Shown here: positions 1 to 59,260 of the stretch, one piece after another | Numbering within the stretch: position 1 is the stretch's first letter | How the letters are laid out: each line of letters starts with the position of its first letter | Origin: Chrysomallon squamiferum | Lineage: Eukaryota > Animalia > Mollusca | DNA: 64,000 bases | Assembly: GCA_012295275.1 (NCBI GenBank) | Contig: CM022672.1 | Location: 18,600,001-18,664,000 of the forward strand | Direction: 5' to 3' | The notes under the pieces: model-generated | Databases searched by the model: none | Told to the model about the DNA's origin: nothing | The model's input: the letters and a program-made list of their open reading frames with translations, nothing else | Program-made: the position numbers and the translations under genes

Positions 1-303
1 CGCCTCTTCCAGCGTCCCGTACACAGACGGTTTGCTGCATTTCTTGGACGCACTCTGGATGTTGGAATATGCCGTCATTACCTCACTTCTTTTATTAAGT
101 ATTGAGATCAGCGTGCTGCGTGGTATGCCGTATTCCCTGGCTATTTCGGCTTTGGTCTTCTTGCCCAGGTCTGCGATTTCAATCAGAAGATATTTCGTTT
201 CGAAGTCGAGCGTCTTGCGTTTGTTTGTCTTCCTCGGAGTTTTCTTTGAACTGACGTTTCGGGGTTCGGAACGATAACCGGGCTGGGGTGCATTGCTGGT
301 TTC
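1..303 (-). CDS. Alternative terminal exon B (partial, runs off window): psq-type HTH plus start of CENP-B-type HTH DNA-binding module
   Basis: Acceptor ttaattgaacag|GAA at 303, phase 0. Open to position 1: ETSNAPQPGYRSEPRNVSSKKTPRKTNKRKTLDFETKYLLIEIADLGKKTKAEIAREYGIPRSTLISILNKRSEVMTAYSNIQSASKKCSKPSVYGTLEEA. KRKTL..ETK and IAREYGIPRSTL..IL are CENP-B/pogo/Tigger N-terminal HTH motifs. No in-frame ATG before the HTH. Confidence 0.85.
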
Positions 304-420
304 CTGTTCAATTAAAAACAGTTTATTTTTTATTCCTCGGAAGAACTCAAGATGAAAGTTTTTGTTCGGTACAGATCAATTGAAATAATTTCTGTTGTTT
401 CTGTTACTTAAGATATGTAA

Positions 421-456
<36 letters not shown>

Positions 457-547
457 TAAAAACAAATTCAATGTTTTAGAAGCAGATAACAAAAGGAATG
501 CAAGCATACAAAATGTATATCAAGTAAAGTATGTACAGCAACTAAAC

Positions 548-582
<35 letters not shown>

Positions 583-612
583 TAATAATAGTAATAATAA
601 TAATATGTTAAA

Positions 613-775
613 TAGGAAACAATTATGTGCATATTAACAATCCACATGCTTTTAAATAACAACAACAACAGCAACAACAACAATAATAATAATAGTGTTA
701 CACAGGAAACAATTATGTGTATATTAAAAATCCACATCTTTTAAAAAACAATAACAACAACAATAATAATAATAA
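613..775. repeat. Tandem duplication, about 90-bp unit, 2 copies
   Basis: aggaaacaattatgtg.atattaa.aatccacat followed by (AAC/AAT)n starts near 613 and again near 703. Confidence 0.8.
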
Positions 776-984
776 TAGTAACTGAAGAATAATAATGATG
801 ATGATTAAATAATAAAAAATAACATACTAAAAGTCCAGGAAATTTATCATGTGAATAAGTTGTTCTAGTTATTTCTGGTTTTAAAACATGATCTCATTCA
901 TCAGTTTAAAAATAAATGTGGGAAAATAAATTTTGAACCTATGTTGGATACAATTTGTTATTTAGATTCTTTTGAAAGTAAGAT

Positions 985-1016
<32 letters not shown>

Positions 1017-1778
1017 GCATACATTAATTAATTTCCTAAACTCAACATATGTTATAATAAACTGATTAAAATATAAACTAGTATTTGACAAATGTACCTA
1101 AATAATCTGTGTTTTCTCAAAGTTTAAAATAGAGCATAATATCTTAATTTGACAGTACAATGTATATGATTCTGTTCAAATTACAGTTATCAAGCATTCT
1201 ACCTGAACTGAAAAAATAACTAAAATGACTAATTTTGGTGCATTACGATACAGAACGAGGAAGCAAAACAAACAAGTGATCACAAGAATTAGCACTCGAA
1301 ATTAAAGCACAAGATTTTGTTATGTTGTGTAAGTGGGTTTGAATGCTGGGTAAGAGTTTTCCCAGTGGGCTTGAAGTAAGCACTTTCTGTATTAGACTCC
1401 ACTGTTTATTTCCTATTTCAGATGGAGTTAAATATGACAAATTTTAATCAATGGTTATATAGTGTCACACACACAGCTACCATACAGACAATAATACTAT
1501 TATTAACAGCTGAAATACACAGGCTCCATGCAATATGGTGTGAACTTTTATATGTATCTTCCTAAAGGTTGGAACAACAATAACAACAACCAGGATGATG
1601 ATGATATCTGTTCCAGACAACATCACAGGAAGCTTTATCAAAAATACCACAAATGTAAGTTTGTCAAATATAATTAATTTAAAATGATAATTTTTCTTCC
1701 CGTTTTTAGTTTAAAAAAAAAAAAAAAAAAAAGGAAAAAACATAGGAAGGAAATGAAAGGACTGATCCAGATACTGAC

Positions 1779-2264
1779 CTATTTTTTCTTTACTAACAGG
1801 ATGCCATGTCGTGCTTTGAACTTGTTAATGTATCCTATGCTGGGATGAAAGTCTTTATGTCCCAGTTCTTGTGCTAACTCACGGGCTTTGGTCACCATCA
1901 TCTGACCAGTTATATACAGCCCATGTCTGACTGCCTCGCAGTACCAGCTGTACAGTTTGTCCTCTAGATGCGAATACTGTGATTTGCACAGGCGCTGACG
2001 ATGTGGTGCAAATGAACAACTTTCCCACGCTGTAATGACCGTCTGCTTATTCTTCATGATTGTGCTCAGGGTGTTGGGTAAAATGCCAAACTCACGTGCA
2101 ATAAGACTTTTCTTTTTCACTCCTGCCTCAACCATGCGAATAAGTCGATACTTAGTCTCTATGTTTAGCAGTTTGCAGACCCTCTTTGGTTTCAAAGTGC
2201 AAGATACCGGGGTCATGCAAGGCTTTCGAATGGCTGTTCCTTGCAGGTATATTTCCTCCTTCTC
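1779..2264 (-). CDS. Alternative terminal exon A: psq-type HTH plus CENP-B-type HTH, no DDE domain
   Basis: Acceptor tctttattacacag|GAG at 2264, phase 0, 161 codons then TAG. Motifs LNIETKYRLI, IAREFGILPNTLSTIMKNK, LEDKLYSWY, ITGQMMVTKARELA, SIGYINKFKARHGI. The stop comes right after the second HTH. Candidate minus-strand AATAAA at 1405-1410. Confidence 0.88.
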   Translation of the reverse strand, partial: EKEEIYLQGTAIRKPCMTPVSCTLKPKRVCKLLNIETKYRLIRMVEAGVKKKSLIAREFGILPNTLSTIMKNKQTVITAWESCSFAPHRQRLCKSQYSHLEDKLYSWYCEAVRHGLYITGQMMVTKARELAQELGHKDFHPSIGYINKFKARHGILLVKKK

Positions 2265-3830
2265 CTGTGTAATAAAGACAGAATGATTTGGATGTTGTTG
2301 GGTTTTTTTTGTTTTGTTGTTTGTTTGTTTGTTGTTGTTTTTTTTCAAGAAAGAAAGAAAAAAATAGCATATGAAAAAGATCATTTTAACTTGATCATAG
2401 AAAAATATAAATTACACCAATTTTAATAATATTTGGCTTGATCATTTTAGCTACAGAATATAAAACTATTTAATTTAAGAATGGATCATGCTGATACTGT
2501 ACCAGGATCACTGCTACAGCTACAACAATTTCCTTCAAGGTAAATAGTATTTACATTGTTTATTCATATACCACTGGCATACCATTTTTCTATAGCAATT
2601 TTCTGAATGCTCTACTTTCTAATCAATGCTACATCAAATACCATAGAGAAAGATAAAAAGAAAAAAAGTGAGGGACAGACAGACATTGAGATCCATTTGC
2701 ACCAATATTCATTTTATACTAAACAATTAACTGAAAAATACAGCAGTACTTTCTTAAATAATAAACTGCAGTAAAATGCACTTAAACTGATTCTTATTTG
2801 TAGGAGATTTATTTATTTATGGTAAACTTGTGTACACAAAGAACTGGATGACTGACAGTGCAGATGTCACAAGAGAAACATCAATAATGTACATTCAAGT
2901 TGCCTCAAACCTCTTTGACTTAAGTGCATTTTACTTTACATAAATTAAACATAAAACACATGCCAGACTTGTTTAATTATGGCACTGAGTAGAAATTCTA
3001 AATCATACTCAGGTTTCTTTTGTACACTCCACATTTTATTCACTGATGAAAAATGTCTAAGGAAATTTTCTTGACTAAATTTAGTCACTATTAAATATTT
3101 TCTAGAAAAATTTCTGGTGCTGTAATGTTAAACATTTGTTAAACAACAAATATTTAAAATGGATGGTTATTAATGTTGTTATATCATTCATTAACTGTAA
3201 TACTGTACGCTCTATTTCTGTAGACTCAGTAAATGTAGGTAATATGCATCTCACTGATGCCTGAGATAAAGCTTATTTACAACAAAAAATTTCTTTTACT
3301 TGATTTAAAAAAAATTCCTTTATCAGCTTTGCACAAAACATAAAAATAAAAACACACACTTAGTATATCAAAAAGAAGAAAAAAAGAAAATATGCAGCAA
3401 TATTTTAAAATGCTACTAGGATAATATATGATAAAAACTTTAAATCTTGTTAGCATAATGATGAATGGTTTTTGTTCATCATTAAAATGTCTAACAAAAA
3501 AAGGTGATATAATAATTATACTCCTGTTCATCAGCAGTGATGTTACACATACTCAAGTCAAGCACATATCAATTTACAACTCATGTTTTGTGGGGTTATT
3601 AAATTTGTATTTATAATCAATATGGCTTAATTCAACCACCTGATAACACTTGATTATATTATAAAAACAAATAGCCCAGTTTATTTTGGTTTAATGAATA
3701 CTCTTTCAAGACAGAGAAAACCCATAATATTTTTATGATGAATTTAACATGAGAATATGTTTAATGTTTTGATCTTTGTTGTGAAGAAGAGAAATTTTTC
3801 TGTTTTATGAAATTATTAAAAAAAGGAAAA

Positions 3831-3872
<42 letters not shown>

Positions 3873-4853
3873 TAATAATAATAATAAATAAATAAATAAA
3901 TAAATTTAAAACCTAATAAATAAATAAAAAATAAATAAAATAAACAAATAAATTTCCAAAACCTAATTTGAATTTATTTAAAAAAATACAGTATCAATAT
4001 ATAAGAACAAAAATATAAAAAAAATAACAGTCCTATTTCCATAAATCCAAAAAATTAAATATTTACATTTTAATTATTAAGAACATGTTTATAAAATGAA
4101 ATATAAAAAATTAAAATTTATTTTCAATCATCTAGAAAATTAAATATTTTGATTTTTGCACAAAGAATATTATTAACAGATAAATTTTTATATAAAAAAA
4201 AAAAACCCCTTCAAAAAAAACCACACAAACTGACACATACAAGTAAGTACAAATCAACATTTCAGTATCTATTCATTATTCAATAATGTCTGCACTTTAA
4301 ATAAATTACAGTCATTTACTTTATAATAAAATATAATTTTTATATGTTGCTGAATGCATATTTTAAATGAAATATGTCAAGGGATTGCTTAGTTGTATAA
4401 ACTTGTGTTTCTTTCAACTGATAACTTGTATCTTAATTTTCTCTTTTCTTTGTGTTTTACAATTCACTATTTAATCAGTTCTATTTACTGTTTTTGATAA
4501 TATAATAAATTAATACAGTGAAATGCTAGCATATAATGCATCTGTGAAGAAATAAATAGTCTCAACCTTCATACTGATGTGTGTATCCATTACCCTGGTC
4601 ATTTCACATCCCCTAAATCTCTGATAGGTCATCTTTCATTTGGCTGTCTAACATGTAGTGAATTTAATGTACATGAAACCTTACAGATTTCTGTCAAGGT
4701 AATGCTTCATCAAAGCTGCATTTATATTAAACAGTTCCACCCTTCTTCTGATATCAACATTTATACTGAACTGCAGGTAATACAATGTTGTTTTTTGATT
4801 ATTTACATGTTCTGTTTGTGAAATTTCTTTTACCATATATATATATCAAATCA

Positions 4854-5013
4854 CTGTTTGTATACATATTACTGGGTATCCTGTAATACTGATGCATGTT
4901 CTCAGTTTCTGAAATTTGTTTTACTGTATATAGATATATATGGTAAAAGAAATTTCACAAACCAAGAACATGCATCAGTATTACAGAACGACCAGTAATA
5001 TGTACACAAACAG
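4854..5013. repeat. Imperfect 160-bp palindrome/hairpin, with an extra partial arm copy at about 4806-4845
   Basis: Left arm ctgtttgtatacatattactgg...ctgtaatactgatgcatgttct... is the reverse complement of right arm ...agaacatgcatcagtattacag...ccagtaatatgtacacaaacag. Symmetry centre near 4933. Confidence 0.9.
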
Positions 5014-5424
5014 ATGAGTAGAAAGTGGCAGTTAAAAATGAATATGTCCAGATACCCACTGGAATGATTAATGACATTTTCAGTTCTATCTCTCCATATT
5101 ATCAGCAGTTCCTGGATCAAAAATGTCTGCCGTAACTCTGTGATGTATTTTTTAATAAATCAAAAAGCTTATGCATTTTATTGGGACACCCAGAATCTGC
5201 TGAATTAACCACTGTGAACTAAGGCTGCAAAAATGGATTTGGTATACTGCAGACATGATAGTCTCACACCCATCGGTAATATCAGTTATTAAAACAAGAA
5301 ATTTAACAAAATATCTCAACAAAAAGAAATCACTTTAAATTTAAGTGATCTTTTAAGTTTAACAAAAGCAAGACATACACAATAATATAAATTTATGGCA
5401 GATAATATAAATAATGGTACCTAC

Positions 5425-6647
5425 ATGTTTCGAGTGATAACTTGCTAGTGAACTGGAAGTGCCTGGCTCTTGTAAAATACAATCATCAGCTTCAGTTCCC
5501 ATGTGATCAGTCAGTCCAGCTGTTGATTCACCAAGTTCTGCAGATTTTGAATTTGAATATAAAAGACAATTAGTCTGATTCTCATCAGACTCCTCCTTAA
5601 CATTAACAGAGGTGGGTGAGAACATTTTCTCTTGATTTCTTGATCCTGTTGTGTCAGTGTATATATCACTTCCAGCAGATGATTTGGCTACAATTTAAAT
5701 ATATATAACAAAGCATTAAGACAAGTCATAAAATGTTACAGTGTTAAAATCTTACATCTTTACTTTTATTATATTCCAAGCCATCCATAAATTCATGTTC
5801 AATTCCTAATCCAACTTCCCAAGTATAAATATATTTGCAAACATCCACAAACATTTGTGAACAAATGCATTAAATATATTTGCATGCAAACAGACACATA
5901 TATATGCATTCACAAAACACTCTCCAACACACATAAGAAACATATGCGCACAAAAATAAAAACACATGTTTACACACATGCACGTACAAAACACGCACAC
6001 ACCGTATCCTACTTTGGAATTTCACCATACTTACTTCTCTTTGTATTAGTAAATCCACTATTATTAACCTTTCTTTTGTTGGTACTATTCCTTTCAGCGG
6101 CAACCAGTGAAGTAAACATATCATTTTTAAAATTTCTGTCTTGGGTGGGTGGAGATGACACTGATGATGAACATCTAGTCTGTCTTTTATCACAGTTAGA
6201 AACAGATCTTACTATAGGTGGGTCAGTATTGTTATTTGTTAAATCTATTTCAATTTTTTCACTGTTATTCAAAATATTTTGAATTTGTGGATATCTCTGC
6301 TGTATTGGTCTGCTCTTATCAGATGAACCACAAACCCTAACAGTGTGAAGTGGAGATTCGGAATCATTCTGTTCCACTATGTCAATATTTTCAATTGCTG
6401 ACTTCTGTAATGTATGTTTATCAGTAAATGTTTTAAACACTTTGGTACAGTGACTTTCACTAACCACAAGTCCAGCACCATTAAGAAGTTCACAAAGTAC
6501 ATATCGCTCTTTCTTGGTATTGTCAATGTCCAAGGCTAGGTAACCACTGAGTTCAACAGAATCATTGAATTGAAGATAATCTCGACATGCTTTCTGTATC
6601 ATTTCCAAAAGATGACTGAAAAATTCCTCTGAATAGTGTTTATCCAT
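5425..6647 (-). CDS. Constant coding exons of a variable-C-terminus transcription-factor gene (uncharacterised N-terminal domain plus low-complexity linker)
   Basis: Exon 6655-6035: acceptor ttttgacag, ATG 6647, donor A|GTAAGT, phase 1. Exon 5687-5425: acceptor ttgtag, donor CAT|GTAGGT, phase 0. Together 876 nt = 292 aa, MDKHYSEEFFSHLLEMIQKACRDYLQFNDSVELSGYLALDIDNTKKERYVLCELL...VNVKEESDE...SYHSKH. The phase matches both downstream HTH exons. Confidence 0.8.
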
Positions 6648-6989
6648 TGCTCTACCTGTCAAAACAATCAAATAAACACATTAACATTCAAAATACAAAT
6701 TACTTCAGTGCATGACACTTTATGCACATTTAATTAAAAAACAGTTCTGAATGTCCCACTCATCCGTTTCAAAATATATTATATATACGTGGAAATTCCA
6801 TATACAAGTTTAAACTTACTTTATATAATTTTATTTAACATTTATTTTTTTTTTTATTTTTTTTTATTGTTGTTGTTGTTGTTATTGTTCAACACATCAG
6901 GAATAATTATTTTATTTTTGTAAGGCTATTAGAATTAGTTCAATAACATATTATACCAAATATTCTAATTTGTATTTTATTACTGCGTA

Positions 6990-6997
6990 CCGGAAGT
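6990..6997. promoter_or_regulatory. ETS/GABP-type site (CCGGAAGT) in the head-to-head interval between the HTH-cassette gene and FBXW4
   Basis: Exact CCGGAAGT about 340 nt upstream of the minus-strand ATG. A candidate donor AAA|GTAAGT for a non-coding exon lies at 6820/6819. Confidence 0.5.
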
Positions 6998-7920
6998 ATT
7001 CATCACAGTTTATAAGTCTCCTCATACTCCCTTCTGTTATCATATAGTATGATAGTAATTAACTCTTCAGACAAACATATTATTTCAGATACTAACCATT
7101 TGCAAATGAAATATAATATTTGTTTTCTTATCTTTGCATTTTAAGACTCTGGCAGATATAATGCTATTTGTTCAGTGTAAAAGCTAATTGTTAGTTTCAT
7201 TTCCCTCATACATTTTGTGAGCACCCAATCAGTACCTCTTGCTTTGCTACATCTACTTATGATTAATATAATTTCTTAAAACGATTTGGGATAGTTGTAT
7301 CTAGTTTTTATGAGAAATACTAGACATAAACCAATATTTGTATGTATCCAAACTAATAATTTTTCTGTTTTAATTTTAATGAAATAAAAGGATATTCATT
7401 TTTCACTGTGTAAATTAACGCTAGACATGTCATTCCATAGTAAAAATAATATAATTATTTTTAAAGTAGTATTTACATATAGTTGGTGGGACTACTTATA
7501 GCTAACATACGAATAATAACTGATTCCTTATTCAAATATGATAAAATTATAAATTGATAAACTGTTTGTTGATGGTGGTTTTTGGGGGGTTTGGGGTTTT
7601 TTGGGGTTTTTTTTTACATTTTGATATCATTATTTTTCTTTTCTTCTTTCGATTTTAAAACCTTTTTGACAGACTGGTCTAAATATAAATTTTACATCAC
7701 TGCATTGTTATAGCGATTAGGTGTTTACGACAGAAGTCAGCTTAACTGTTCTTTCTTTGAAGGGGAAATTAAAAAAAGAAGAAATGTTATGGTCGTGATG
7801 GTTGCGAAAGTTTAACAGCTATTGTGAAACAGTGAACCAAAATTTGGAAAATGTACAAAAATAACATTTTAGGCAATATCGTAAATTCATATATTAGAAA
7901 CTTGTCAAAGAAACTCCAAA

Positions 7921-10900
7921 ATGCCTGTCGATGGAAAACTAAAGAGAAATGAAAGTCGCAGTGTCATTGGCAGTGTGTTTAGGTACACTGCTGTGACTTC
8001 TAATAAAAATGATCGTCATGATCATAATCTTGACAAAATATCCCGGAAACGATTGACATTAACCTGTTTGCCGGATGATATTCTGCTTTTGATATTCAGT
8101 TATTTAGATGTGCAGTCACTTGGTCGGTTGTGCCAAGCTAGCTGTCGATTCCGAAATCTAACATCGTTGGATTATGTATGGTTACCACATAGCAAAAACA
8201 TTTTCATAATACAAGATCTGAATCAAAATGGGTAGGTATCCAACACATAGCTGAAATTATTAATTGACAAAACCAACGTGGCGAGAAATTATTATTATTT
8301 ATTTAGTTAGTTGTTTATTTTATGTACAGTAATTATAAAAAATTTCATAGTCACTAACATTTGCAAATCATTATCCTTCAGATTTATAAATTTTGAATGA
8401 AGTAGAAATTTACTGAATCATTTTCCTTTATAAATCGTATTCCTAATATTTATAGAAATAGTGGTTACATTTACAAAACTTCAAAATATAAATTAATATC
8501 AGATTTCATCAAACTTATTCTTTATTATATTATTGATTATTTCAGTTTAGTTTCACTTGTCATCTGTACTTAAGTATGAAACAATTATGATGTGATATTT
8601 TTTTTTCTATTGTTTTATTATTAATTAATTGATAAACATAAATACTGATGTTAATTTATTTTTGTATCCATGTTTTTATATTTTAGACAGTCTTTAAGTT
8701 TAAAGGAAAAATACAGAGTTGCAAAGAACTGGGATCAGAAAAAAAGTCATGAAGTTACCCTTGTTCGAAACTCGAAACGGTAAATTATTATTATCAATGC
8801 ATATATATCATGGCATGATGTCAAAAGCTGTTATGTTGATATATATGCCACATACACAAATATCAAGATAAGAAAATATGAATTAAAACATTTAGGTCAA
8901 TAAAGGAAAATAAAATTAATATACAAACCAAATAAATATCACTATTCAAAATGATTTTTTTTTTTTCCTTTAATTCAAGACCACTTTATGTACCTAAAAA
9001 AAAAGATTTTTTTTTTTTTTTTTTTTTAATTAATTACTTTAAAAAAATAAACAACCATATTATTGTATTTGCATATATAAATACACTAAACATGTTTAAT
9101 TGATTATATTTTTATTTATTTATATATTTATTTATTTATCTGTTTTTTATTCTGACAGATTGATGCCATGGATGCAGTATGAAAATCAAACCATATGGAT
9201 TTCCACACAAAATGTAATACGCAGTTTTAGAGTGAAACAAAATGGCTACCTGGTTGAAAACACTGAGCACAGACTGAATGGGTTTAGAGATGACGTCAGT
9301 CGATTTGTCATCAAGGATGATTTACTTGTTGCTGGATGCAGGTGAGATGTTAATCTGTACAAAGAGTTGTGTTAATGCAAATGAAAGTATCTGTTTTAGT
9401 CAGTACTTCTAAATTTCAATTTGTTGTCACTAATATGATAAATATAGTGTTGTGGTAGTAGTACATGATGTTGTTTTTGTTCTGCAGAGATGGTGGTGTC
9501 GGAGGATGGTCTATATCAACAGGTTCAATGCTTTTCAGTTTCCCTAAGCTTCATTCAGGTGATACACAGTGTGTTGATCTCAGTGGCAGTTTGCTCATTT
9601 CAGGCTCTAGGGACGGCCACGTTAAGGTATTTCTCATTGTATTTCACACTGTTATTCTAGCTACCTTAGAATAGCATTTTGTGGTTAAATAAACCAAACA
9701 ATCTAATTCCAAATGCACAGAAATTTTAACATGCTGTTAAAATGTATACTGTATACAAAACAAATAACAAAAATCATAATAACAAAATAAATGAATAGAT
9801 CAAAAATATAAATAATTGACCCATTAATTATCAGACTACCAAAATGTCGAAGAAATCAACAATGATTTAATCAACATATGTTAATTTTTAGAATATATAT
9901 ATATATATATATATATATACCATTATTGGTTAAATAAATTATTAATTAAACAGTATAGTAAAAACCTTTTTTTTTTTTTTTTTTTTTTATTGTGTTGTTA
10001 GATAACCTCTCTGTCATGTAACAAAGACATGAACATACCAGAGAAAACTCTTGACATACAGGACAGAGTGTGGAGTCTTAATGTCTCCCCAGATGGGAGT
10101 GTGCTGGCTGTAGGGTCAGCTGGTTGTGGAGGAATACCACCCTTAGGTATATGGGACCTGAATCGGTTAGTACCCTTAAACCATCTCGATGCTGAAGTGG
10201 TTAAATGATCAGCCTTATGTCTGGTACTAAGACCATATTAATTGATGCCTGTAATCACTTCATTTCAGTCTTATTTGAAATGTTGTAGCTTATAAATCCA
10301 TGTAGAACATTTCAAAATGTATTGATACTGCAACTTTTTATTTCGCATTGTATATTTTTATTTAACCTACATGCTCGTTCAGAGCCCATTTGTAAATAAA
10401 ATCAGAAGTACCTCAATTAATAATTAAGAGTTATTATTAACAGGTTTGTCTTTATACTGTTGTTATTATTATTATTTTTATTTTTATTTTTTATTTTTTC
10501 ACAGCTGTGAGATGGCTATGCAGTTAGGATCAGATTTCAAAAAGGGGGCAGGAATACTTGACATGACATTCACATCTCCAGACACTCTACTCACCTGTGG
10601 TTATGACTCCTATTTGAGACTCTGGGATATACGCACAGGTTCTTGGTAAATAGAATTATCTTTTTCCTCTTTGATTGATGCTGATTATGAGATACTTGTG
10701 TCAAACTTTATTGTTATCATTATTGTTGTTTCATTCATTTATTTATTTATTTAATATTTTTTATTATTATTATTTTTTTTTTTATTTTATTATTCATATT
10801 TTTATTATCACAACTGTTGTTGTCATTATTATTATTATTATTATTATTATTAACATCTCCTTTTTTTCAATTATTAATGTTTTAATCATCTGTTATTACT

Positions 10901-11723
10901 GTAATTATTACCATTATTATTTCAGTGTCACTGAATGGGAAGACATTTTTGACTCAGCTCTGTACTGTCTTCAGACTGACGGTCAGTATGCTGTAATGAC
11001 TGGAACTGCACGGTATGGAATGAGTCGACTTTGGGACATAAGACAGGCACAGTGTGTACAGGTGATGTTTCATATAGATAAATAAGAAATTATGTTCACC
11101 AGTTATGGAGCTGTGGGCGTGCGTACGTGCGTGCGTGTGTGTAGTTGTTCTTCAAGACACATGAACAGTAGCAATTTGTAGTCTATATACATGGTTAAAA
11201 ATCAGATATATATTAATAAAATTATTAATTAAACAGTATAGTTATTGATTTGTTTTTTATTGTAATTTTCATCAAATTGTTTATGAAGTGATAATTCAAT
11301 ATGAGAAAAAAAATTGTTAACTTTAATTAATCCTTCCTCACTAATCATTTTTCTTTTGTTAAGCTTCGTTGTTAGTAAAGATTAGTCGAAGTACTTAGTA
11401 CACTGATTGACTAATATTTGTTACATTATTTGATACTTTCTTGTTTTATGCTTCTTCAGGACATAATTATTAAGTAATATTATCAACATGTTTATATGAA
11501 TGAGATTTAATGGTGTCTAAAGGTAATTAAAAGGGAAGAGATGTTTAAAACTTAATTCATATAATATAGTACATATTATTTTTATTTTATTTTTGTTTCT
11601 TTGTAGGTTTACTTTTCTGGCCGACATAGCAGTCCTGTTTATTCACTTGCCTTCAATTCTTGTCGTTTTTATGTTGCTTTGGATGTCAGCATCAATATGA
11701 TTGATTTTACTGGCTTCAAGTGA
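7921..11723 (+). CDS. FBXW4: F-box/WD repeat-containing protein 4 (dactylin)
   Basis: 8 exons with GT-AG ends and consistent phases: 7921-8231, 8687-8779, 9159-9341, 9488-9626, 10002-10165, 10505-10645, 10926-11061, 11607-11723; 427 aa. F-box LPDDILLLIFSYLD; FBXW4-type motifs LKEKYRVAKNW, RLMPWM, LLTCGYDSYLRLWDIR, LYCLQTDG, RLWD, SSPVYSL. Confidence 0.92.
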
Positions 11724-23176: not shown

Positions 23177-26100
23177 TCATGTTCCATTGATTACATTTGA
23201 CTTTTCATTCATATATGCTTGGACGGCCCTCCAAAGAGCCATTATGTTCCCTGCGCCAAATCCAGTGGCTCCTTGACGCTGAATTATTTCCAAGAAGAAA
23301 GTATCACGGTCAAATAAAGGCTTAGTGAACTTCTGCAGTAAGTACCTACAATAAATAACAGATGGAAAGATAAATATAGGCATATGACACTGAAATTCTA
23401 CATTTAAAGATAATGAACATGAATTTACCATCTTACATTTCAATTATTTAAATGAATATTCAGAGCTGTGTCATTTTCCAAAATCCACAACAAAAATAAA
23501 AATAAGGCTGGTATATAATTACTACAGCTCATAAAAATGAACAGAGCTGCTTGCTGATTAATATTGTCATTGCTTGGAGGCAACAAATTTAATGAAATTA
23601 GATTTTTATCATCATAAATACTACATACTCATTCTTATCTTCAAAATATTATGAAACTATTTCTGCAATATGATGCTGTGAAAATATGCAGCAAACAATC
23701 AATGTCAAGTTTTAAAAACTTAATTTTATACCTGTGTTTGGACGTGGTGTCTGTTGAGCTGTTTCCTGCATCAGCTTCTGAATCTATCAGTATACCATGC
23801 TCCTTCAAGACAGACACATTTTGTCCAATCTCCATTATTTCTTTCCACTTCCCAATCTAAAGATTAAATAAATTAGTACAATATTCAGTTAAAAATGGAC
23901 GAACTGTAATTTTCTTCATGAAAACTTTCTCATTTATGGTTACAAAAGATTATGATTTTGATAAAACAATTTTTGTGTTAAACTTTAGAAATCTGAATTT
24001 CAACAAATACATTTCTGGTAAAGTCCAAATTTCGTTTCAAATGTCTACCAGTTATTCTTATTATCAGAGATGAATTAAAGACTTTTATGGATACTAATTT
24101 GATGTCAAGATTAAGAATACAACAAATGTGAAAAAATAAAAATTTTTTTTTTTAAAATTATGGAAGTTCAATGGAATCCATCCTATCCAATGGCAAAACA
24201 CCATAGCCTTTCATCAGTGCCAAAGTCGTATAAAACAGTCAATTGTGGACATTAAAATTCTGATACAAAAATTATGAGGTTTGTTTTATTGTTACTGTGT
24301 TTTTACTGGAGGTGGGTAGGGATGGGTGCTGTTTATACTATAACAAATTTTTTTAAAGTGCAGGAGTTAAGTTTTAAAGATCTATCATTTATTGAAATAA
24401 TTATTCTGAATACTCTGAGAAATCATTTTGATACAAAATTTCACATAATTTGAAAATAAAAACCTCTGTGTAATAGGTGTAGGGTGGCTCCACAAACTGT
24501 ACACCTTCCTTTGCCAGAGCAGACACTGAAGAAACAATGTCTGTGGATGACAGTGCAATGTGCTGAACACCAGCTCCACCATGGTTACAGAGGAATGTGT
24601 CAACCTGGTTTGGGCCTGTTGGTAAATATTTTAATTTAAGAATTGCTGACGGATAATATTAATTATATAACTATATAATCTATATTACTGATGAATACAT
24701 ATTCAACTTTTCATTCAAAATGGAATATATTTAGAGAGATCTGTTTCTTGTAATATTTTGTAGAAAATTTTACTTTACTATTTAGAATCTCCGTTTTATT
24801 TGTTTTAATTTTTTTTTGGCATGTTTTTTTTTAAAACTTTTTTTAACTTTTTTTATTTTTTTTTTTTAAGTGCAGTGACAAGTATTTCAGTGTCTTCTGT
24901 TTTCATTTTACAATTATTTAAAATACAACTAGATGAACATACAGAGACCTATATATTTATTTGTTTGAATGAAAAGCCAGTGTATCTTATTTGCAAATGT
25001 TTGTACAGAGATGAAATAGAAAACAGTATCTTGTAACCTTGATCTGTAAGTGCTTCAGCTATTATGAATTTCACCCCATTTGCTTTTCCAGAAATTAAAC
25101 CAACTTCAGCACACTTCCAGTATTCAAAGGCCTTTAATCGTAATCCAATGTTATCTGTACCAATAACAAAACCCTCAACTTCATCTTCTTGTCTGAAATT
25201 TATAAACCGTATTTAAAATACTACCAGGAATAAATTATTATATTTCATAAATAACCAATTAATTAGCAAATATAACAGTAAAAGGTAAGAAGTATACTCT
25301 CATCTGACCATCCATCTTATGCCGTATACATTTTATGCCATATATATATTTCTTTTTGGAGGATGTTCTTTTGTTGTTTTATATATTTAAGAAAAATAGC
25401 ATATTTTTACCTGGCATCTCACCCTTGATATACAAAACAAACAATATGATTTTTTTTTTTTTTTTAAATTTCTTATTAAATGTATTATCTTACTTCTCAA
25501 AATTATATATTTACTTATAAATTAACTGCATCAGCAATACAACAAAATTTCTAACAAGTTATTAAAAATAATAATGTTCACCATTTCTAAATGGTTTTGT
25601 TATTTATTTACTTTTTTCTTCTTCTTCTTCTTATTTAATTAATTCACTTATTTATTTACCTGTTGATATAAAATCTTTTCATACCAAAAGTTTTTTCATA
25701 CCAGTGTAATATTTCATCTGCAGAACCACAATATGCCGCAAAAGTAACGTGGTCAATGTTAGTTAACTTTGGGTCACGTTTCTCTCGACTTTCTTCATTG
25801 CACGCAAAAAATTCATCTGCGTTGTTTATGCTATGAAAACCAGGCAAAAAACTTCCAGTATAGTTATCTCTTTGAACTAATGTGTGAACGACATTACCCA
25901 CGCATGACTTAACTGTAGCTGTCCACACTGTTCCATGTTCGTCAGATAAACAAGAAACTGGTTTTATTATCTGAGCTCCCGATTGCATCAGTTTTTGTAC
26001 CAGCTTCAGCACGTCGTTGACGGCGAATGCTATATTAAAAACGGTATCTTTAATTTCATCAAGTTTTGATGATTCCGTGAATCTAATAAAATAGGGATCA

Positions 26101-26324
26101 TTCTGCGAAAGGTCTTCATTATTAACATCGTCCAAACTAGCCGGTAGCGTTAGTGGTTCTGTGATGAGAAAACTAGACAGACCTGAAGATAAAACCCACT
26201 GTTTTGCTTTGGACGAAGTTCTTGTTGCTATGGGTTTAAATCCGTATTGACGGTATAATTTTCTGGCAAATCCCAAACCATTTTTCACTCCAAATTCGAC
26301 ATGGTGAACAAAACACGTCTCCAT
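23177..26324 (-). CDS. HPDL: 4-hydroxyphenylpyruvate dioxygenase-like protein
   Basis: 5 exons: 26324-25660, 25192-25038, 24615-24464, 23856-23732, 23345-23177; 421 aa. Iron-ligand motifs IDHVTF, GVQHIAL and FLEIIQR, and HPDL-type C-terminus [19 protein letters not shown]. Confidence 0.92.
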
Positions 26325-26752
26325 TGTTCATGTCACCTTGCATATCACGTTTGATTTTTATGTTTGTTTGTTCTTTTTTGTTTGTGTTCTTAAATTATCT
26401 CCCTTGATACGTTTCCGTTTTGTAACTTTAATCCCAATTGTTGTTATAATAATGTTAATCCTGCAATCCAAAGTACAGTTATCATGGTAAAAGTACGCAG
26501 AAGGCTGTATGTTATATATAGCTGAAGACTCATAGTTTAAAGATGCAATAATAATATACCCAAATAATTTTAAAATAATGTAATAATATGATAAATATCG
26601 CATAATTTAAATGTTTCTGAAGTTACTTCAACAAATAACTGATGACAAAACAGGCTTTATTGAATAGACAAAACATTTTTAGAATTATGAAACTTATGAG
26701 ATATTCAAAATATATGCTAAATCTCTGAACAAAATACCAACATATATATTTA

Positions 26753-38110: not shown

Positions 38111-38848
38111 TCATTCTATACCATTATCCACCTGAATTGAAACAAGTTTTTTCCTGATAAAAGTGTGCTCCATATGTACATTTTGTTTAGACGTTTGTAA
38201 AACACTTTCACACTGTGAATCAACAGGTGTTGTAAAATCATCACCTGTCGTGTCAATATCTCCGTCCGAACTGGACCCACTTGTGTTAGAGGGTGCACAC
38301 CTCTCCCCTTTCTCATTCCAGACCGTCTCCTCTGGTATTTCCAAGTCCACCCCTTCTCCCTTACCCTGAGTGTATCCGATTTCATCCAGAGGCTCACAGG
38401 CTGATATGCTTGCTAACCAGTTCTGACACCTTCGGGTGTTTTCCTCCAGATATACCCGATCGTCGCATCCGGACGTCCGATTTCGCAAACCAAATTCTTT
38501 CGGTTTGGTCTGCGCCAGACTGACGGTCAACATTCCTTCGGGAAGATCAGAAATTGTATGTTCACTTCGTGTTCTGTGAATTTTAGCCCTGACACGTTTC
38601 ACCTGTTTTATGAGTTTAGCGGATCCTCCTGAGTGGGGAATGCCACTCTTTCCTTCAGTATTGTCATGGATACCCGACTTACCGCCGTGAGTTCGAGTAT
38701 TTTCAACGGGCTCGGCAGTCTGTTGTTCTTTCACCTGTTGACTTTTCTGATGTTGGTCCACAAAATCAGTCCAGCACGGCTTCTTGGGTGGTTTCAGAAT
38801 ACTGACAGCTCCAGCCATAGAATTACTTTTTGTGGGGCTCCTTTGCAT
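38111..38848 (-). CDS. Uncharacterised, largely disordered 245-aa protein encoded by one coding exon
   Basis: Uninterrupted GC-richer ORF in an AT-rich background. First ATG at 38848 (the track's 38860 start is GTG). Candidate motifs ILKPPKKPCWTDF and YLEENTRRCQNWLASI. Confidence 0.75.
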   Translation of the reverse strand: MQRSPTKSNSMAGAVSILKPPKKPCWTDFVDQHQKSQQVKEQQTAEPVENTRTHGGKSGIHDNTEGKSGIPHSGGSAKLIKQVKRVRAKIHRTRSEHTISDLPEGMLTVSLAQTKPKEFGLRNRTSGCDDRVYLEENTRRCQNWLASISACEPLDEIGYTQGKGEGVDLEIPEETVWNEKGERCAPSNTSGSSSDGDIDTTGDDFTTPVDSQCESVLQTSKQNVHMEHTFIRKKLVSIQVDNGIE

Positions 38849-39480
38849 TCTAGCCTCCACAGATGTCCAAACGGAAGAATAAACGTCTACACCCAGAACA
38901 CAAGGAAGACATTAGGATGAAACGTATTATCTTCAGATTTCGTGAAATTCGGAACTTTTTGTAGAACCGTTCTTTCTAAATTTAGAACGATTGTTTACGT
39001 GAAACATACATTTCTTTAAAACAGAAACAAAAGAAGAATTAAATAATTAAGAAACAATAATAATAAAAAATAAATAAATAATAATAATAGTTAGTTCTGA
39101 GACATTTACGCCACTTATGGCTTATAACTGAATCAGTTCCTGTGCGCCTTATCAGAATCTTGTATTATCTGACACTCCATACATCCACAAAATAATCGAC
39201 GCCTTTATCCCTAAATATAATTCCTGCGAATGACGTCTGCTCGCAGCCATGCTTTTGTTCTCGCGCTTTCAATAGTTCGTCTGTTCCGGGATAAGCAGAC
39301 GTGTTTGGGGTCACAGCCTCCACTGCAGGAACCCTGCACCTCGATAATGACAATTGGTTTCAATTACGGCCGTCTCGGATACACCCGTTCTGTGTCTTCG
39401 CATCGGTTTTTCTCTCGACCCCGTTCCACGAGCAACCTGCTGTACAAAATCAGACGCTGCTTTCAGATAGTTGTTGAAAG

Positions 39481-56100: not shown

Positions 56101-57448
56101 CGTAACTTTCCTAATTACAAGTGGCGATAATTCCAAACAATATTTAAGTCGTGTGACAGAAGAGATGAGTTGGCATGCTTTATATACCATCTGTTTCGAT
56201 GATATGAGGTCAAGTTTTTATTATTATTATTAATATTATTATTATTATTATTATTATTAGATATAATTATAGCAAAATTGATTATAACTGAAAGGTATAA
56301 AAATATATTTTGTTTGGCTTTCTAGTTTCGTTGATAAATAAAACTAAGTTCCAAAGTAATTAACTCTAACAGTAAGTTAGTAACATCTTGAAATAGATTT
56401 GATAGGTTCTAGCACGAGGCCGTGTATATGGCTGTTGTTGTTGTTGTTATTATTATTATTATTGTTATTATTGTTATTATTATTAGTAGTAGTATTAGTA
56501 TTAGTATTAGTATTAGTATTATTATTATGTCTTCTTGTTTAACACCAATAAAAGGGGAAAAAAACAACATAGCCACACCCACACTAAAAATACACCCTAA
56601 GTACTTTATTTCTTTATAAGACTTTATTTGATAACTTTAATAATCTTAATGTAACAGTAATCTTTTCTTGATTAATCATTTCAAGAAACCAAATTTGATA
56701 ATGATAAAGGAAGTTTATATATTAATATATAGGTTTTAAAAATATTTATTTATTTGTTTATTTATTATTTATATATTTATCATTAAAATTTTAAAAGCTA
56801 ATTCTTTAACTGGAATAATACAACAAGACTAATAAGAAATAAAACTATTTCTTGATTATTATTATTATTGTGTGTGAATTTTGTTTGGTAAAAATTTTAA
56901 TACCATATGTGAAATCACACAAACTACTAACACTAAACATAATAATATATGAATAAATATATGAACAAATAAATAATAAATGAAAATAAAATAATTAATT
57001 TTAAAAACTGACTCTTTAAAGATGTCTATTTAAATAACTGTTAAATTGTTAATATATTTGTGTTTATCTTAAGCATCCCATAATTATGTAACGTGGATAA
57101 AAATTTTTTTTTTACCAAAAAACAACAACAGAGGAAACATAACACTTTCCTTTACTTTTTGTACCAGCAGATTTAAGATTACCACAACTAAATTTGTGCA
57201 AGTTAATATTTGTCATGATTTGAAACTATAATTTACATAATTTATTTCTTTAAATATTTTTTTTATATTTTCTCTACTTTTTTCCTTCTTACAGGTTTTA
57301 TACATTAAAGCTTGATTCTCTGGTAATGAAGAATATTGCAGAATGACATCTTTATTTAATCTGAAATTAAATTTGTTCAAAACTAAAAAAGTAACTTCAG
57401 TATTATTTTGTCTACTAAGACACTAATTACTTCTTAAAATAATTCAGA

Positions 57449-59260
57449 ATGTGGAAGTTCAAAATAAATATTCCACCAGACGTATATTATGGCTCAATGT
57501 CATTTTACATAACTGTTTTAAACAACGTCTTTCTCTTGTATCATGTGGACATGTTTGTATCGGTGTACAAAATTAACAAGCTCTCATTCTGGATTGGCGA
57601 AGTCATATTCTTGGTCTGGAATTCTCTAAACGACCCTCTCTTTGGCTGGATTAGTGACAAGAAATACCTTTCAGCATCGTCCAAATTCAGCAGCAGCACT
57701 GAAGTGATTTTGCAGAGACTGACTGCCCTCCAGAGAAACGGTCCACTGTTTGCCTTGTCTTTTCTTCTGTTTTGGGTCTCGTGGGCTTACCCGTGGCTTC
57801 AGTTTGTTGTGTGTTTGTGTACGTATGATGGTTTTCTCACCATGATCGATCTTCATCACTCATCTCTGCTGGCAGACCTGGCAGTCTCGGCAGAAGTAAG
57901 GACAAGATTAAACTCTCGCTGTTCACTTTTCGCAGCTGCAGGTTCGGCATCAGTGTTTCTGTCTTACGCTGTGTGGGACAAGGGTAACTTGACGTCATTC
58001 CGAATATTCTGCGTGGTTCTCACTGTAATATCCTTGCTCGGCTTTTTCTGGTCGTCCAGTGCCTTAAAGAAACATTACAAGAATCTTCACAGGCAGCACG
58101 AAGAACATGGGTATGATTCAACAGAATTTGTGTGTTTTTAAATAAATATTTATTCTGCTTATCCAGTTTAAAAAAAGTAAAGTTTGAAGTCATGTAAGAT
58201 TTTTGAACGTTTTAAAAATGTAATATTTATGCATTGAAAGGTTATAAAATGTTGAAAGAAAATATATTTTGTGTTTTTAAGTAAATTATTTTATTGAATT
58301 AAAATACAAAAAATTAGTTGTATTTTGAAGAATATTTTTCTATATTCACTAAATGTGCACATTTGTATGTTGATGAATAAAAAAAGCACAACAACATAAT
58401 GTACAAATATTTATAATTATTTTCTTTATACAGAGGTTTAATGTTTCAGTTTTAATGTTGGAAAGACTTAAAAGAACAACTTTAAAGTAGATAATCTTTA
58501 TACTTTTGATCATGACAACAGCTGAATCATTTTATAAATTTCTAATCATGTATTTGTGAAGATTACTGTTATTTTTCTACAGTCGGTCAACAAGTGCAAT
58601 TGTTCCTGACATGTTGAATGGACAGAAGAAACTCATGAAGAAATTTGTCTTTCAACTCTTGTCTCAGAAAAACTTTCTCTGGTTTGCAGTAATGAACATT
58701 ATTCAGGTTTGTGTTTGTTTGTTTGTTTGTTTTATATGAAACATATATAAAAATACATAATTCACTTTATAGATTGGAAATTTGCCTTTTGAGGTCATTC
58801 ATTCATTGCAGAAGTAAAGGATATCAATACTAACATATGAACACATATTTTCTGTAATATTATTTCAACAAAAAATTCGGATATATAATATATCATCCCA
58901 TCAGCAAAATCAGGAATTCACTTATTCTTTGAATTTAAATAAAAATTTAAATAAAAGATGTAAAACAAAAGAAGATTATTGAATTGATTGTTTCATAAAT
59001 TGTTGTTGTTGGTTTTTGAGCAGACTTTTCTACCTGTCAGTATCATTTCTTAGTTTATTTCTAGTACTGACTTTCATTTATAATAAACTGGTATTTAAAT
59101 GTAAATATACCACATTATTTTAGAGCAGTTTGTCACATGTATATGTATTATATTTATTATAACATATAATATCATATTAATAAATATTAAAGTGATCATC
59201 CTTTTCTTTTCAATTCACATTTTATATCTGTGTATATGTGTGTGTGTATATATGTATGTA

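Follow-up and report, generated by a model that had tools for sequence, protein, structure and literature searches.

One splice donor joins a conserved N-terminal domain to alternative CENP-B-type HTH exons in a gene of the snail Chrysomallon squamiferum

On the minus strand of the 64-kb stretch of Chrysomallon squamiferum DNA that we analyzed (the window), one gene joins a constant N-terminal region through a single splice donor to either of two exons, each of which encodes an HTH domain. RNA contigs contain both joins. We consider it highly probable that this gene belongs to a mollusc family that has convergently rebuilt the lola/mod(mdg4) design without a BTB domain.

RESULTS

The gene is made up of the following parts.

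6035..6655, minus strand: constant coding exon 1, with its acceptor at 6655, the ATG at 6647 and a phase-1 donor after 6035
6423..6647, minus strand: unnamed N-terminal domain of ~75 aa, modeled with a helix at residues 7-24 and strands at 30-41, 45-56 and 66-72
5425..5687, minus strand: constant exon 2, a low-complexity linker that ends at the shared phase-0 donor (CAT/gtaggt)
1779..2264, minus strand: alternative coding exon A, with a CENP-B_N and a Tc5 HTH that make up a complete CENP-B-type DNA-binding domain and a stop at its last codon
1..303, minus strand: alternative coding exon B, with a CENP-B_N HTH, running past the window edge

When we re-read the minus-strand exons, they agreed with the original prediction of two constant exons (292 aa) and a phase-0 donor at 5425: exons 1 and 2 joined give 876 nt and 292 aa without a stop. 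The best donor of constant exon 1 lies after 6035 (AA/gtaagt), and a donor after 6026 is equally in frame. Joining 5425 to 2264 yields 453 aa and a stop, and joining 5425 to 303 yields 393 aa that stay open up to the window edge. A competing donor at 5421 was rejected because early stops arise from it with both acceptors. A C2H2-like pattern at 5997 was judged by inspection to be a GT-repeat intron artefact.

RNA from four runs of one study (X1-X4), in the form of assembled contigs of low depth (2.7 to 10), was compared with positions 1-2280 of the window; these contigs include no long reads, carry no strand or level information, and look the same for cis and trans joining. The junction 5425->2264 was present in contigs of runs X1 and X2, and the junction 5425->303 was present in contigs of runs X1 and X3. 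Each junction was therefore seen in two libraries and one or the other in three of the four runs, with no junction found in run X4. Contig matches broke off at 2268 (X1, X2) and at 308 (X1, X3) and were followed by the end of the constant exon, the unmatched contig ends mapping uniquely to 5430-5452; with the 4- to 5-nt overhang taken into account, both junctions lie exactly at 5425. Thus, the two joins that were the key prediction made from the sequence were both found in RNA contigs, and the case in which only one exon is ever joined did not occur. RNA cover was restricted to the exons, save for one contig that extended 19 nt beyond the stop. One X1 contig departs after 1779 for 172 letters, the shown part of which is absent from the window, and a donor (AG/gtcagt) lies directly 3′ of the exon A stop at 1779. 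Exon A therefore ends the coding sequence without always ending the mRNA: the prediction of alternative last exons holds for the coding sequence, but exon A can splice onward outside the window.

Pfam assigned CENP-B_N (E 1.6e-7) and HTH_Tnp_Tc5 (E 1.2e-13) to exon A and CENP-B_N (E 1.2e-7) to exon B, and exon A aligned with residues 6-130 of human CENP-B (1HLV, E 4e-16). The two exons share 43% identity over 56 aa and DNA-level similarity of at most 10 nt. The stop of exon A comes five residues past the Tc5 HTH match, with no DDE domain after it, and an inverted-repeat search of positions 1-7900 found no terminal inverted repeats flanking the HTH exons, the inverted repeats there being microsatellites and one intronic palindrome. 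Exon A thus shows neither the DDE domain nor the terminal inverted repeats that define an active pogo/Tigger element; for exon B, only the part inside the window was available. Of the proposed transposase derivation of the HTH modules, the domain type fits pogo/CENP-B, but a DDE domain (in exon A) and inverted repeats are missing. The window exons have pogo/CENP-B-type architecture, and no parent transposon was assigned. With the 106 tails of the family survey described below as queries, no tail type besides the two HTH cassettes and no opposite-strand cassette was found in the 64-kb window. One zinc-finger tail gave a single weak phmmer match at 57216-57422 (E 0.003). Metagenome contigs yielded no matches, whether searched for an exact 30-nt string or with a protein profile.

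Constant exon 1 is 50% identical over 223 columns to the constant region of Gigantopelta aegis LOC121382984, and the N-terminal domain is 82% identical to it across the first 90 aa. From sequence comparison, LOC121382984 is the likely ortholog of the window gene. Its five RefSeq isoforms, X1 to X5, which are predicted models, are identical over 312 aa from the start, after which they carry BEN, C2H2, CENP-B HTH, CENP-B HTH and Psq tails, in that order. Exon A and the isoform X3 tail share 52% identity over 166 aa, in a match that runs from residue 1; therefore, both the cassette and the junction are conserved between the two species. Exon B and the isoform X4 tail share 45% identity over 76 aa, a pair for which one-to-one orthology is uncertain. 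The variable tails matched CENP-B_N, HTH_Tnp_Tc5, HTH_psq, zf-C2H2 and BEN in Pfam, domains from which binding is predicted only. Comparison with another mollusc, which had been put forward as a check, thus recovered the same design, but the description of the locus as a CENP-B/pogo HTH array proved too narrow because the orthologous array holds C2H2, Psq and BEN tails in addition to its HTH tails.

A profile search with the N-terminal domain matched 162 proteins, of which the best 120 were listed. Grouping by identical first 120 aa sorted the retrieved proteins into at least 16 isoform sets that together have 106 distinct tails. Of these sets, 15 (104 tails) come from G. aegis and one from Haliotis rubra, which has two tails and is the sole multi-tail set retrieved outside G. 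aegis. In G. aegis, the domain heads at least 15 loci with 2 to 19 tails retrieved per locus and isoform numbers up to X20-X22; these array loci (at least 15) apparently all lie on one 91.7-Mb contig. All but one of the 16 sets branch at a single point. The tails are short, mostly 2 to 3 fingers or one HTH pair, and a C2H2 pattern occurs in 73 of the 106. In homologues retrieved from abalone, other snails and bivalves, the N-terminal domain is mostly paired with a Crypton-derived DUF3504, and most of the named homologues retrieved outside G. aegis carry DUF3504 without a tail array. Since only a single two-tail set was retrieved outside G. aegis, large arrays may be lineage-restricted in this subfamily. 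P0061 and P0062 were discarded as spurious repeat matches, and the isoform count does not include the P0053 group, which comprises Pomacea and Logan copies, most of them 319 aa long. In a quick tree of the N-terminal domain (78 columns), which has many open forks and supports no order of events, the window gene adjoins G. aegis LOC121382984 and most DUF3504 proteins fall in one starred group.

Mean column identity across the N-terminal domain is 63% and the linker is not conserved, the pattern that, judged from sequence, would be expected of a functional module. Pfam gave no match on constant exon 1, and a sequence search of the PDB gave no match to the domain at E<=10. The Pfam BTB domain was absent from all 31 family members examined at E<=1, and KRAB, zf-AD and SCAN were absent among the 8 weak Pfam matches (best E 0.026) for these 31. 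The predicted structure, of moderate confidence (pLDDT 74, pTM 0.60), comprises a single helix and three strands over 75 aa; BTB domains are mostly helical and about 115-120 aa long. In the sequence searches and the model, the module is thus not a recognizable BTB, in line with its earlier designation as non-BTB. With this model, neither Foldseek (best E 0.21) nor VIA-align (best Z 4.4, rmsd 2.8, 64 aligned) gave a clear match; the top VIA-align rows include longin/roadblock-like chains, and there was no BTB among the best 50, a result that does not by itself establish a new fold. A homodimer prediction, run without an alignment, scored 0.01, which speaks neither for nor against a dimer. The ESM Atlas gave no useful feature match for the window domain, and a word-based query with P0063, a distant member, had no matches, which is weak evidence. 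In the literature covered (titles and abstracts, with few subscription papers), there was no description of the N-terminal domain or of the mollusc array.

DISCUSSION

We propose that each mRNA would encode the common N-terminal domain and linker followed by a differing HTH domain that is predicted to bind DNA. The exon would be chosen in cis, with acceptors that compete and a choice that is coupled to 3′-end formation, and further cassettes (C2H2, Psq and BEN, as in the ortholog) probably lie to the left of the window. The tails may confer different DNA specificities, and the N-terminal domain may be a protein-interaction module through which isoforms and paralogues would pair with one another or have partners in common, the role that TTK-type BTB domains play. 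DNA-binding domains of pogo-type transposases are the most likely source of the HTH cassettes; they would have been taken up as exons and later duplicated locally.

Broad, fruitless and tramtrack are, like lola and mod(mdg4), TTK-group BTB transcription factors. The snail gene resembles lola and mod(mdg4) in having a constant N-terminal module, a linker and one of several DNA-binding-type C-terminal exons. It differs from them in that its front is a predicted alpha/beta module of ~75 aa and not a BTB domain, that at least 15 array loci are present in one snail, G. aegis, and that the tails of the family mix C2H2, Psq, CENP-B/Tc5 HTH and BEN. The gene works like lola and mod(mdg4) but is not a member of their family. 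Genes with a constant front and a variable DNA-binding end have been described for the arthropod TTK-group BTB factors, among them mod(mdg4) with at least 30 isoforms and lola with 20; the same source reports trans-splicing of variable exons at both genes in Drosophila and TTK-type BTB domains as arthropod-only and not found in Mollusca (PMC11426971).

The coupling of transposase-type DNA-binding domains to a host domain is shared with host-transposase fusion genes. KRAB-transposase fusions are reported to arise mainly by alternative splicing, KRABINER being an example, and to repress through cognate transposon sites (bioRxiv 2020.05.07.082677). The host-transposase fusions described there are from tetrapods and favor KRAB, whereas the snail gene places mixed cassettes on one donor behind an unnamed host domain. 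KIAA1958 is described as having two alternative DUF3504 exons (PMC3212892). Many relatives with the N-terminal domain, from abalone, other snails and bivalves, likewise end in DUF3504, a likeness of layout; unlike in KIAA1958 and the Crypton DUF3504 genes, the window cassettes are HTH. The exon A domain also differs from CENP-B and pogo/Tigger in being a C-terminal cassette and not an N-terminus, with no DDE-like or dimerisation region after it.

In KRAB- and ZAD-zinc-finger families, diversity arises as entire genes are duplicated, each gene carrying one finger array. The same is described for FiNZ-zinc-finger genes, which repress young TEs and whose FiNZ domain is 28 aa long and cyprinid-specific (bioRxiv 2022.11.29.518450). 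From these descriptions, the snail family is like the KRAB, ZAD and FiNZ families in setting a small lineage-specific N-terminal domain atop an expanded, clustered DNA-binding family but, unlike them, it also diversifies within each gene via alternative short tails. FiNZ and the snail domain are set apart here by description.

An architecture as described could have transposon surveillance as its main job, with DNA-binding ends that can be swapped and are in part transposase-derived guiding a KRAB/FiNZ-like effector to the sequences of many mobile elements, a reading that differs from ours on function and not on structure and that we regard as possible but doubtful. The tails include transposon-linked types (CENP-B/Tc5 HTH and Psq, with DUF3504 in relatives), the family is strongly expanded in a single lineage, KRAB-transposase fusions repress through transposon sites (bioRxiv 2020.05.07.082677), and FiNZ-ZNFs repress young TEs (bioRxiv 2022.11.29.518450). 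However, exon A is conserved (52%) in the tail of G. aegis isoform X3, which points to a stable role in the host, and the short tails resemble those of lola, not long KRAB-ZNF arrays. Trans-splicing of separately transcribed RNAs, for which PMC11426971 provides the Drosophila precedent at mod(mdg4) and lola, would leave the same RNA contigs, but both cassettes lie on the same strand as the donor, downstream and within 5.1 kb of it, and the 106 tail queries found no opposite-strand cassette in the window; we hold trans-splicing to be improbable.

A reading of the HTH exons as remnants of pogo/Tigger transposons or as small genes of their own, with the junctions as splicing noise, is largely refuted and very unlikely. 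Pogo-family transposases and CENP-B carry this type of domain, and RNA depth was low, but the reading frames are uninterrupted and match the phase of the donor, each junction recurred in two libraries, and the RNA cover is exon-confined apart from the single 19-nt extension. Exon A, moreover, is conserved together with its junction in G. aegis X3 and ends after the Tc5 HTH without a DDE domain or flanking terminal inverted repeats. We give still less credence to a highly diverged BTB domain, which would make the gene a true lola/mod(mdg4) family member: the layout and the kinds of tails match TTK-group BTB genes, but no family member of 31 had a Pfam BTB match at E<=1, the PDB gave no sequence match at E<=10, and a 75-aa model with a single helix and three strands contrasts with the larger, mostly helical BTB fold. 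TTK-type BTB domains were also not found in Mollusca according to PMC11426971.

Beyond the convergent, BTB-free design itself, a wider proposal seems to us evenly poised between right and wrong, namely, that this is an undescribed mollusc, perhaps lophotrochozoan-wide, system with a new alpha/beta oligomerisation domain, ~15 loci and >100 specificities that combine through this domain, grown from a gene with the N-terminal domain and a Crypton DUF3504. If so, each clustered gene would have gathered transposon-derived and zinc-finger cassettes as alternative last coding exons, and the system would parallel both lola/mod(mdg4), but without BTB, and the KRAB-ZNF expansion, but by way of splicing. 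That genes of this layout, headed by an unrelated and unnamed domain, occur at 15 or more snail loci suggests a general way to expand regulator repertoires and not a fly oddity. With the diversity held in isoforms, most of this repertoire would escape gene counts. The family is a tractable case for studying how DNA-binding domains of transposases are acquired and diversify, and how one donor selects among 20 or more acceptors. Its N-terminal domain is also a candidate effector domain for some of the zinc-finger repertoire of molluscs, which is poorly understood. The ESM Atlas structure neighbors of a distant family member included four mollusc clusters, two of them titled zinc-finger "isoform X25" and "X9," which we note as a lead only.

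An N-terminal part is spliced to alternative HTH cassettes

We analyzed the minus-strand gene at 1..6655, which consists of a constant part and alternative tails spliced from one donor:

6655-6035, - strand: constant exon 1, coding, with the acceptor at 6655, the ATG at 6647 and a consensus donor after 6035
5687-5425, - strand: constant exon 2, coding, ending at the shared donor
2264-1779, - strand: exon A
303-1, - strand: exon B, which runs off the window

Translation of the joined constant exons gives a stop-free stretch of 292 aa, which extends to 453 aa and then a stop with exon A, and to 393 aa with the frame open at the window edge with exon B. Pfam searches identified CENP-B_N and HTH_Tnp_Tc5 in exon A and CENP-B_N in exon B, and returned no match for constant exon 1. 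Exon A aligned with the entire DNA-binding domain of human CENP-B (1HLV, E 4e-16). Exons A and B share 43% identity over 56 aa but have no similarity when compared as DNA, and so are old paralogues. An adjacent donor at 5421 was rejected, as both frames, to exon A and to exon B, are broken from it.

The original prediction had joined donor 5425 to acceptors 2264 and 303. Five sequencing runs contain this stretch, and four of them are recorded as RNA. RNA evidence came from assembled contigs (depth 2.7-10, without strand or level information) of these four runs, all of one study and here called runs X1 to X4, aligned on 1-2280 only. These contigs cover exons A and B, with none on 381-1748. They diverge from the genome at 2268 (runs X1 and X2) and at 308 (runs X1 and X3), and the diverging letters have a single match in the window, at 5430-5452; given overhangs of 4-5 nt, both junctions were placed at 5425. 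Both predicted joins therefore exist, each in contigs of two libraries, and no junction was seen in the run X4 contigs on 1-2280. The gene has one donor, two acceptors and in-frame HTH cassettes; its unnamed N-terminal domain is conserved, and the linker that follows it is variable.

The two exons had also been predicted to be alternative last exons, and this held in part: no RNA contig on 1-2280 links exon A to exon B, but exon A is last only among coding exons and can splice onward. One run X1 contig uses a donor immediately after the exon A stop codon (1779-1764, - strand): it departs at 1779 for 172 letters, and those shown were not found in the window. One run X4 contig runs 19 nt on into the intron. 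Given these two contigs, exon A ends the coding sequence but continues 3′ in at least two ways. As a lead only, the exon after 1779 could be another cassette serving as 3′ UTR. One reading frame of the 30 letters visible past 1779 faintly resembles, by eye, part of the Psq tail of Gigantopelta aegis isoform X5. RNA contigs differ from the window by single letters in both cassettes, at 221, 226, 254, 264, 2130 and 2208; most likely these are alleles.

Tail arrays in Gigantopelta aegis and other molluscs

Over its first 90 residues the protein shares 82% identity with its likely ortholog, G. aegis LOC121382984, whose five RefSeq protein isoforms have 312 aa in common and are then wholly different, ending in BEN (X1), three C2H2 fingers (X2), a CENP-B-type HTH (X3 and X4) or a Psq HTH (X5). 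Exon A aligns with the X3 tail starting at its first residue (52% over 166 aa). Exon B is closer to X4 (45% over 76 aa) than to X3 (42% over 50 aa), yet its orthology is uncertain because exon A too matches X4, at 46% identity.

Searching representatives clustered at 50% identity yielded 58 matches, two of them spurious repeats. In a 31-row alignment the first ~76 residues had a mean column identity of 63%, and the resulting profile matched 162 proteins, of which 120 are listed, family counts being lower bounds. Defining isoform sets by identical first 120 aa grouped 149 of the 151 collected proteins and gave 15 multi-member sets (sizes 19, 12, 9, 8, 8, 7, 6, 5, 4, 3 and five of 2). G. aegis contributes 14 of these sets and Haliotis rubra one. 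Overall, the comparison of isoform arrays in other molluscs that had been proposed yielded 15 G. aegis sets and one H. rubra set, that is, at least 16 sets with at least 106 tails, at least 104 of these from at least 15 G. aegis loci; the G. aegis isoforms are predicted RefSeq models. The G. aegis set beyond the first grouping, LOC121382870, has at least 15 distinct tails (15 listed of 25 cluster members). A C2H2 pattern is present in 73 of the 106 tails, and the other 33 carry Psq, CENP-B/Tc5 HTH or BEN where Pfam made a call, some having none. When the 106 tails were searched against 1524 ORFs, no other tail types were found in the window; the remainder of the array is presumably located to the left of position 1.

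Constant parts of the sets span 284-393 aa, with a single branch point in 15 of 16 sets. G. aegis LOC121383032 (proteins P0032, P0145 and P0147-P0151) has a nested second branch inside a BEN-like tail, its seven isoforms having 87 tail residues in common and differing only in the last ~35-50. The constant part ends in Q, K or E in all 14 G. aegis sets of the first grouping, as would be expected if phase-0 donors follow a codon ending in AG. Because the longest contig is the same (91,665,651 bp) for every G. aegis row, the data suggest that these loci are on one chromosome. In named homologues from Haliotis, Pomacea, Batillaria, Solemya and Sinanodonta, Crypton-derived DUF3504 mostly takes the place of these tails. 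The tails of G. aegis LOC121384041 (P0025 and P0107; 123 and 140 aa) look alike by eye; Pfam matched neither at E 0.1, and they are possibly an unrecognised DNA-binding domain.

The N-terminal domain and a proposed mechanism

The constant part starts with an unnamed ~75-aa domain (N-domain). No Pfam family passes for it (best E 0.026), and no PDB sequence matched at E 10. Its AlphaFold2 model (pLDDT 74, pTM 0.60) has one helix and three strands and is unlike the BTB fold, which is mostly helical. Fold searches with this model did not return a clear match (Foldseek best E 0.21; VIA-align best Z 4.4). In line with the view that the N-terminal module is non-BTB, no recognisable BTB emerged from Pfam, PDB or model. 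For the distant member P0063, the nearest structural neighbors of its Atlas model were four mollusc clusters (TM by query 0.67-0.74), two of which carry zinc-finger isoform names (X25 and X9); as a lead only, this hints at a wider superfamily around the N-domain.

The array system is real. In its workings it resembles lola and mod(mdg4), but it lacks a recognisable BTB, the domain that defines them, and TTK-type BTB is reported as not found in Mollusca (PMC11426971). We propose that cis alternative splicing would select one cassette per mRNA and that each isoform would read different DNA. The N-domain, common to the isoforms, may offer a common interaction surface, as do TTK-type BTB domains, which hetero-multimerise (PMC11426971). 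The HTH cassettes probably come from pogo-type transposases, as in vertebrate transposase capture, for which bioRxiv 2020.05.07.082677 gives precedent; no parent transposon of the cassettes was found. The system's role could lie in development and chromatin architecture or in transposon control. A literature search largely confined to papers outside subscription found no description of the N-domain or the mollusc arrays; the isoforms are already public in RefSeq under automatic names, and the system appears unnamed.

Neighborhood of the gene

Other features in the window are as follows:

7885-11085, + strand: F-box/WD40 gene (F-box E 3e-11, weak WD40)
25659-26327, - strand: glyoxalase/dioxygenase-superfamily exon (long ORF, E 1e-5)
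38114-38911, - strand: 266-aa ORF with no Pfam match
57443-58138, + strand: MFS_2 transporter exon (long ORF, E 4e-9)

The F-box/WD40 gene and the gene under study stand head to head, the former starting ~1.2 kb upstream; the two probably have a bidirectional promoter in common, and the gene under study probably has a non-coding first exon further upstream. Within the intron that follows the shared donor lies a strong palindrome at 4814-5013 (79-nt arms, 86% complementary), which might influence splice choice; its folding energy as DNA is -57.5 kcal/mol (z -13.6), and it looks like a MITE-type insertion.
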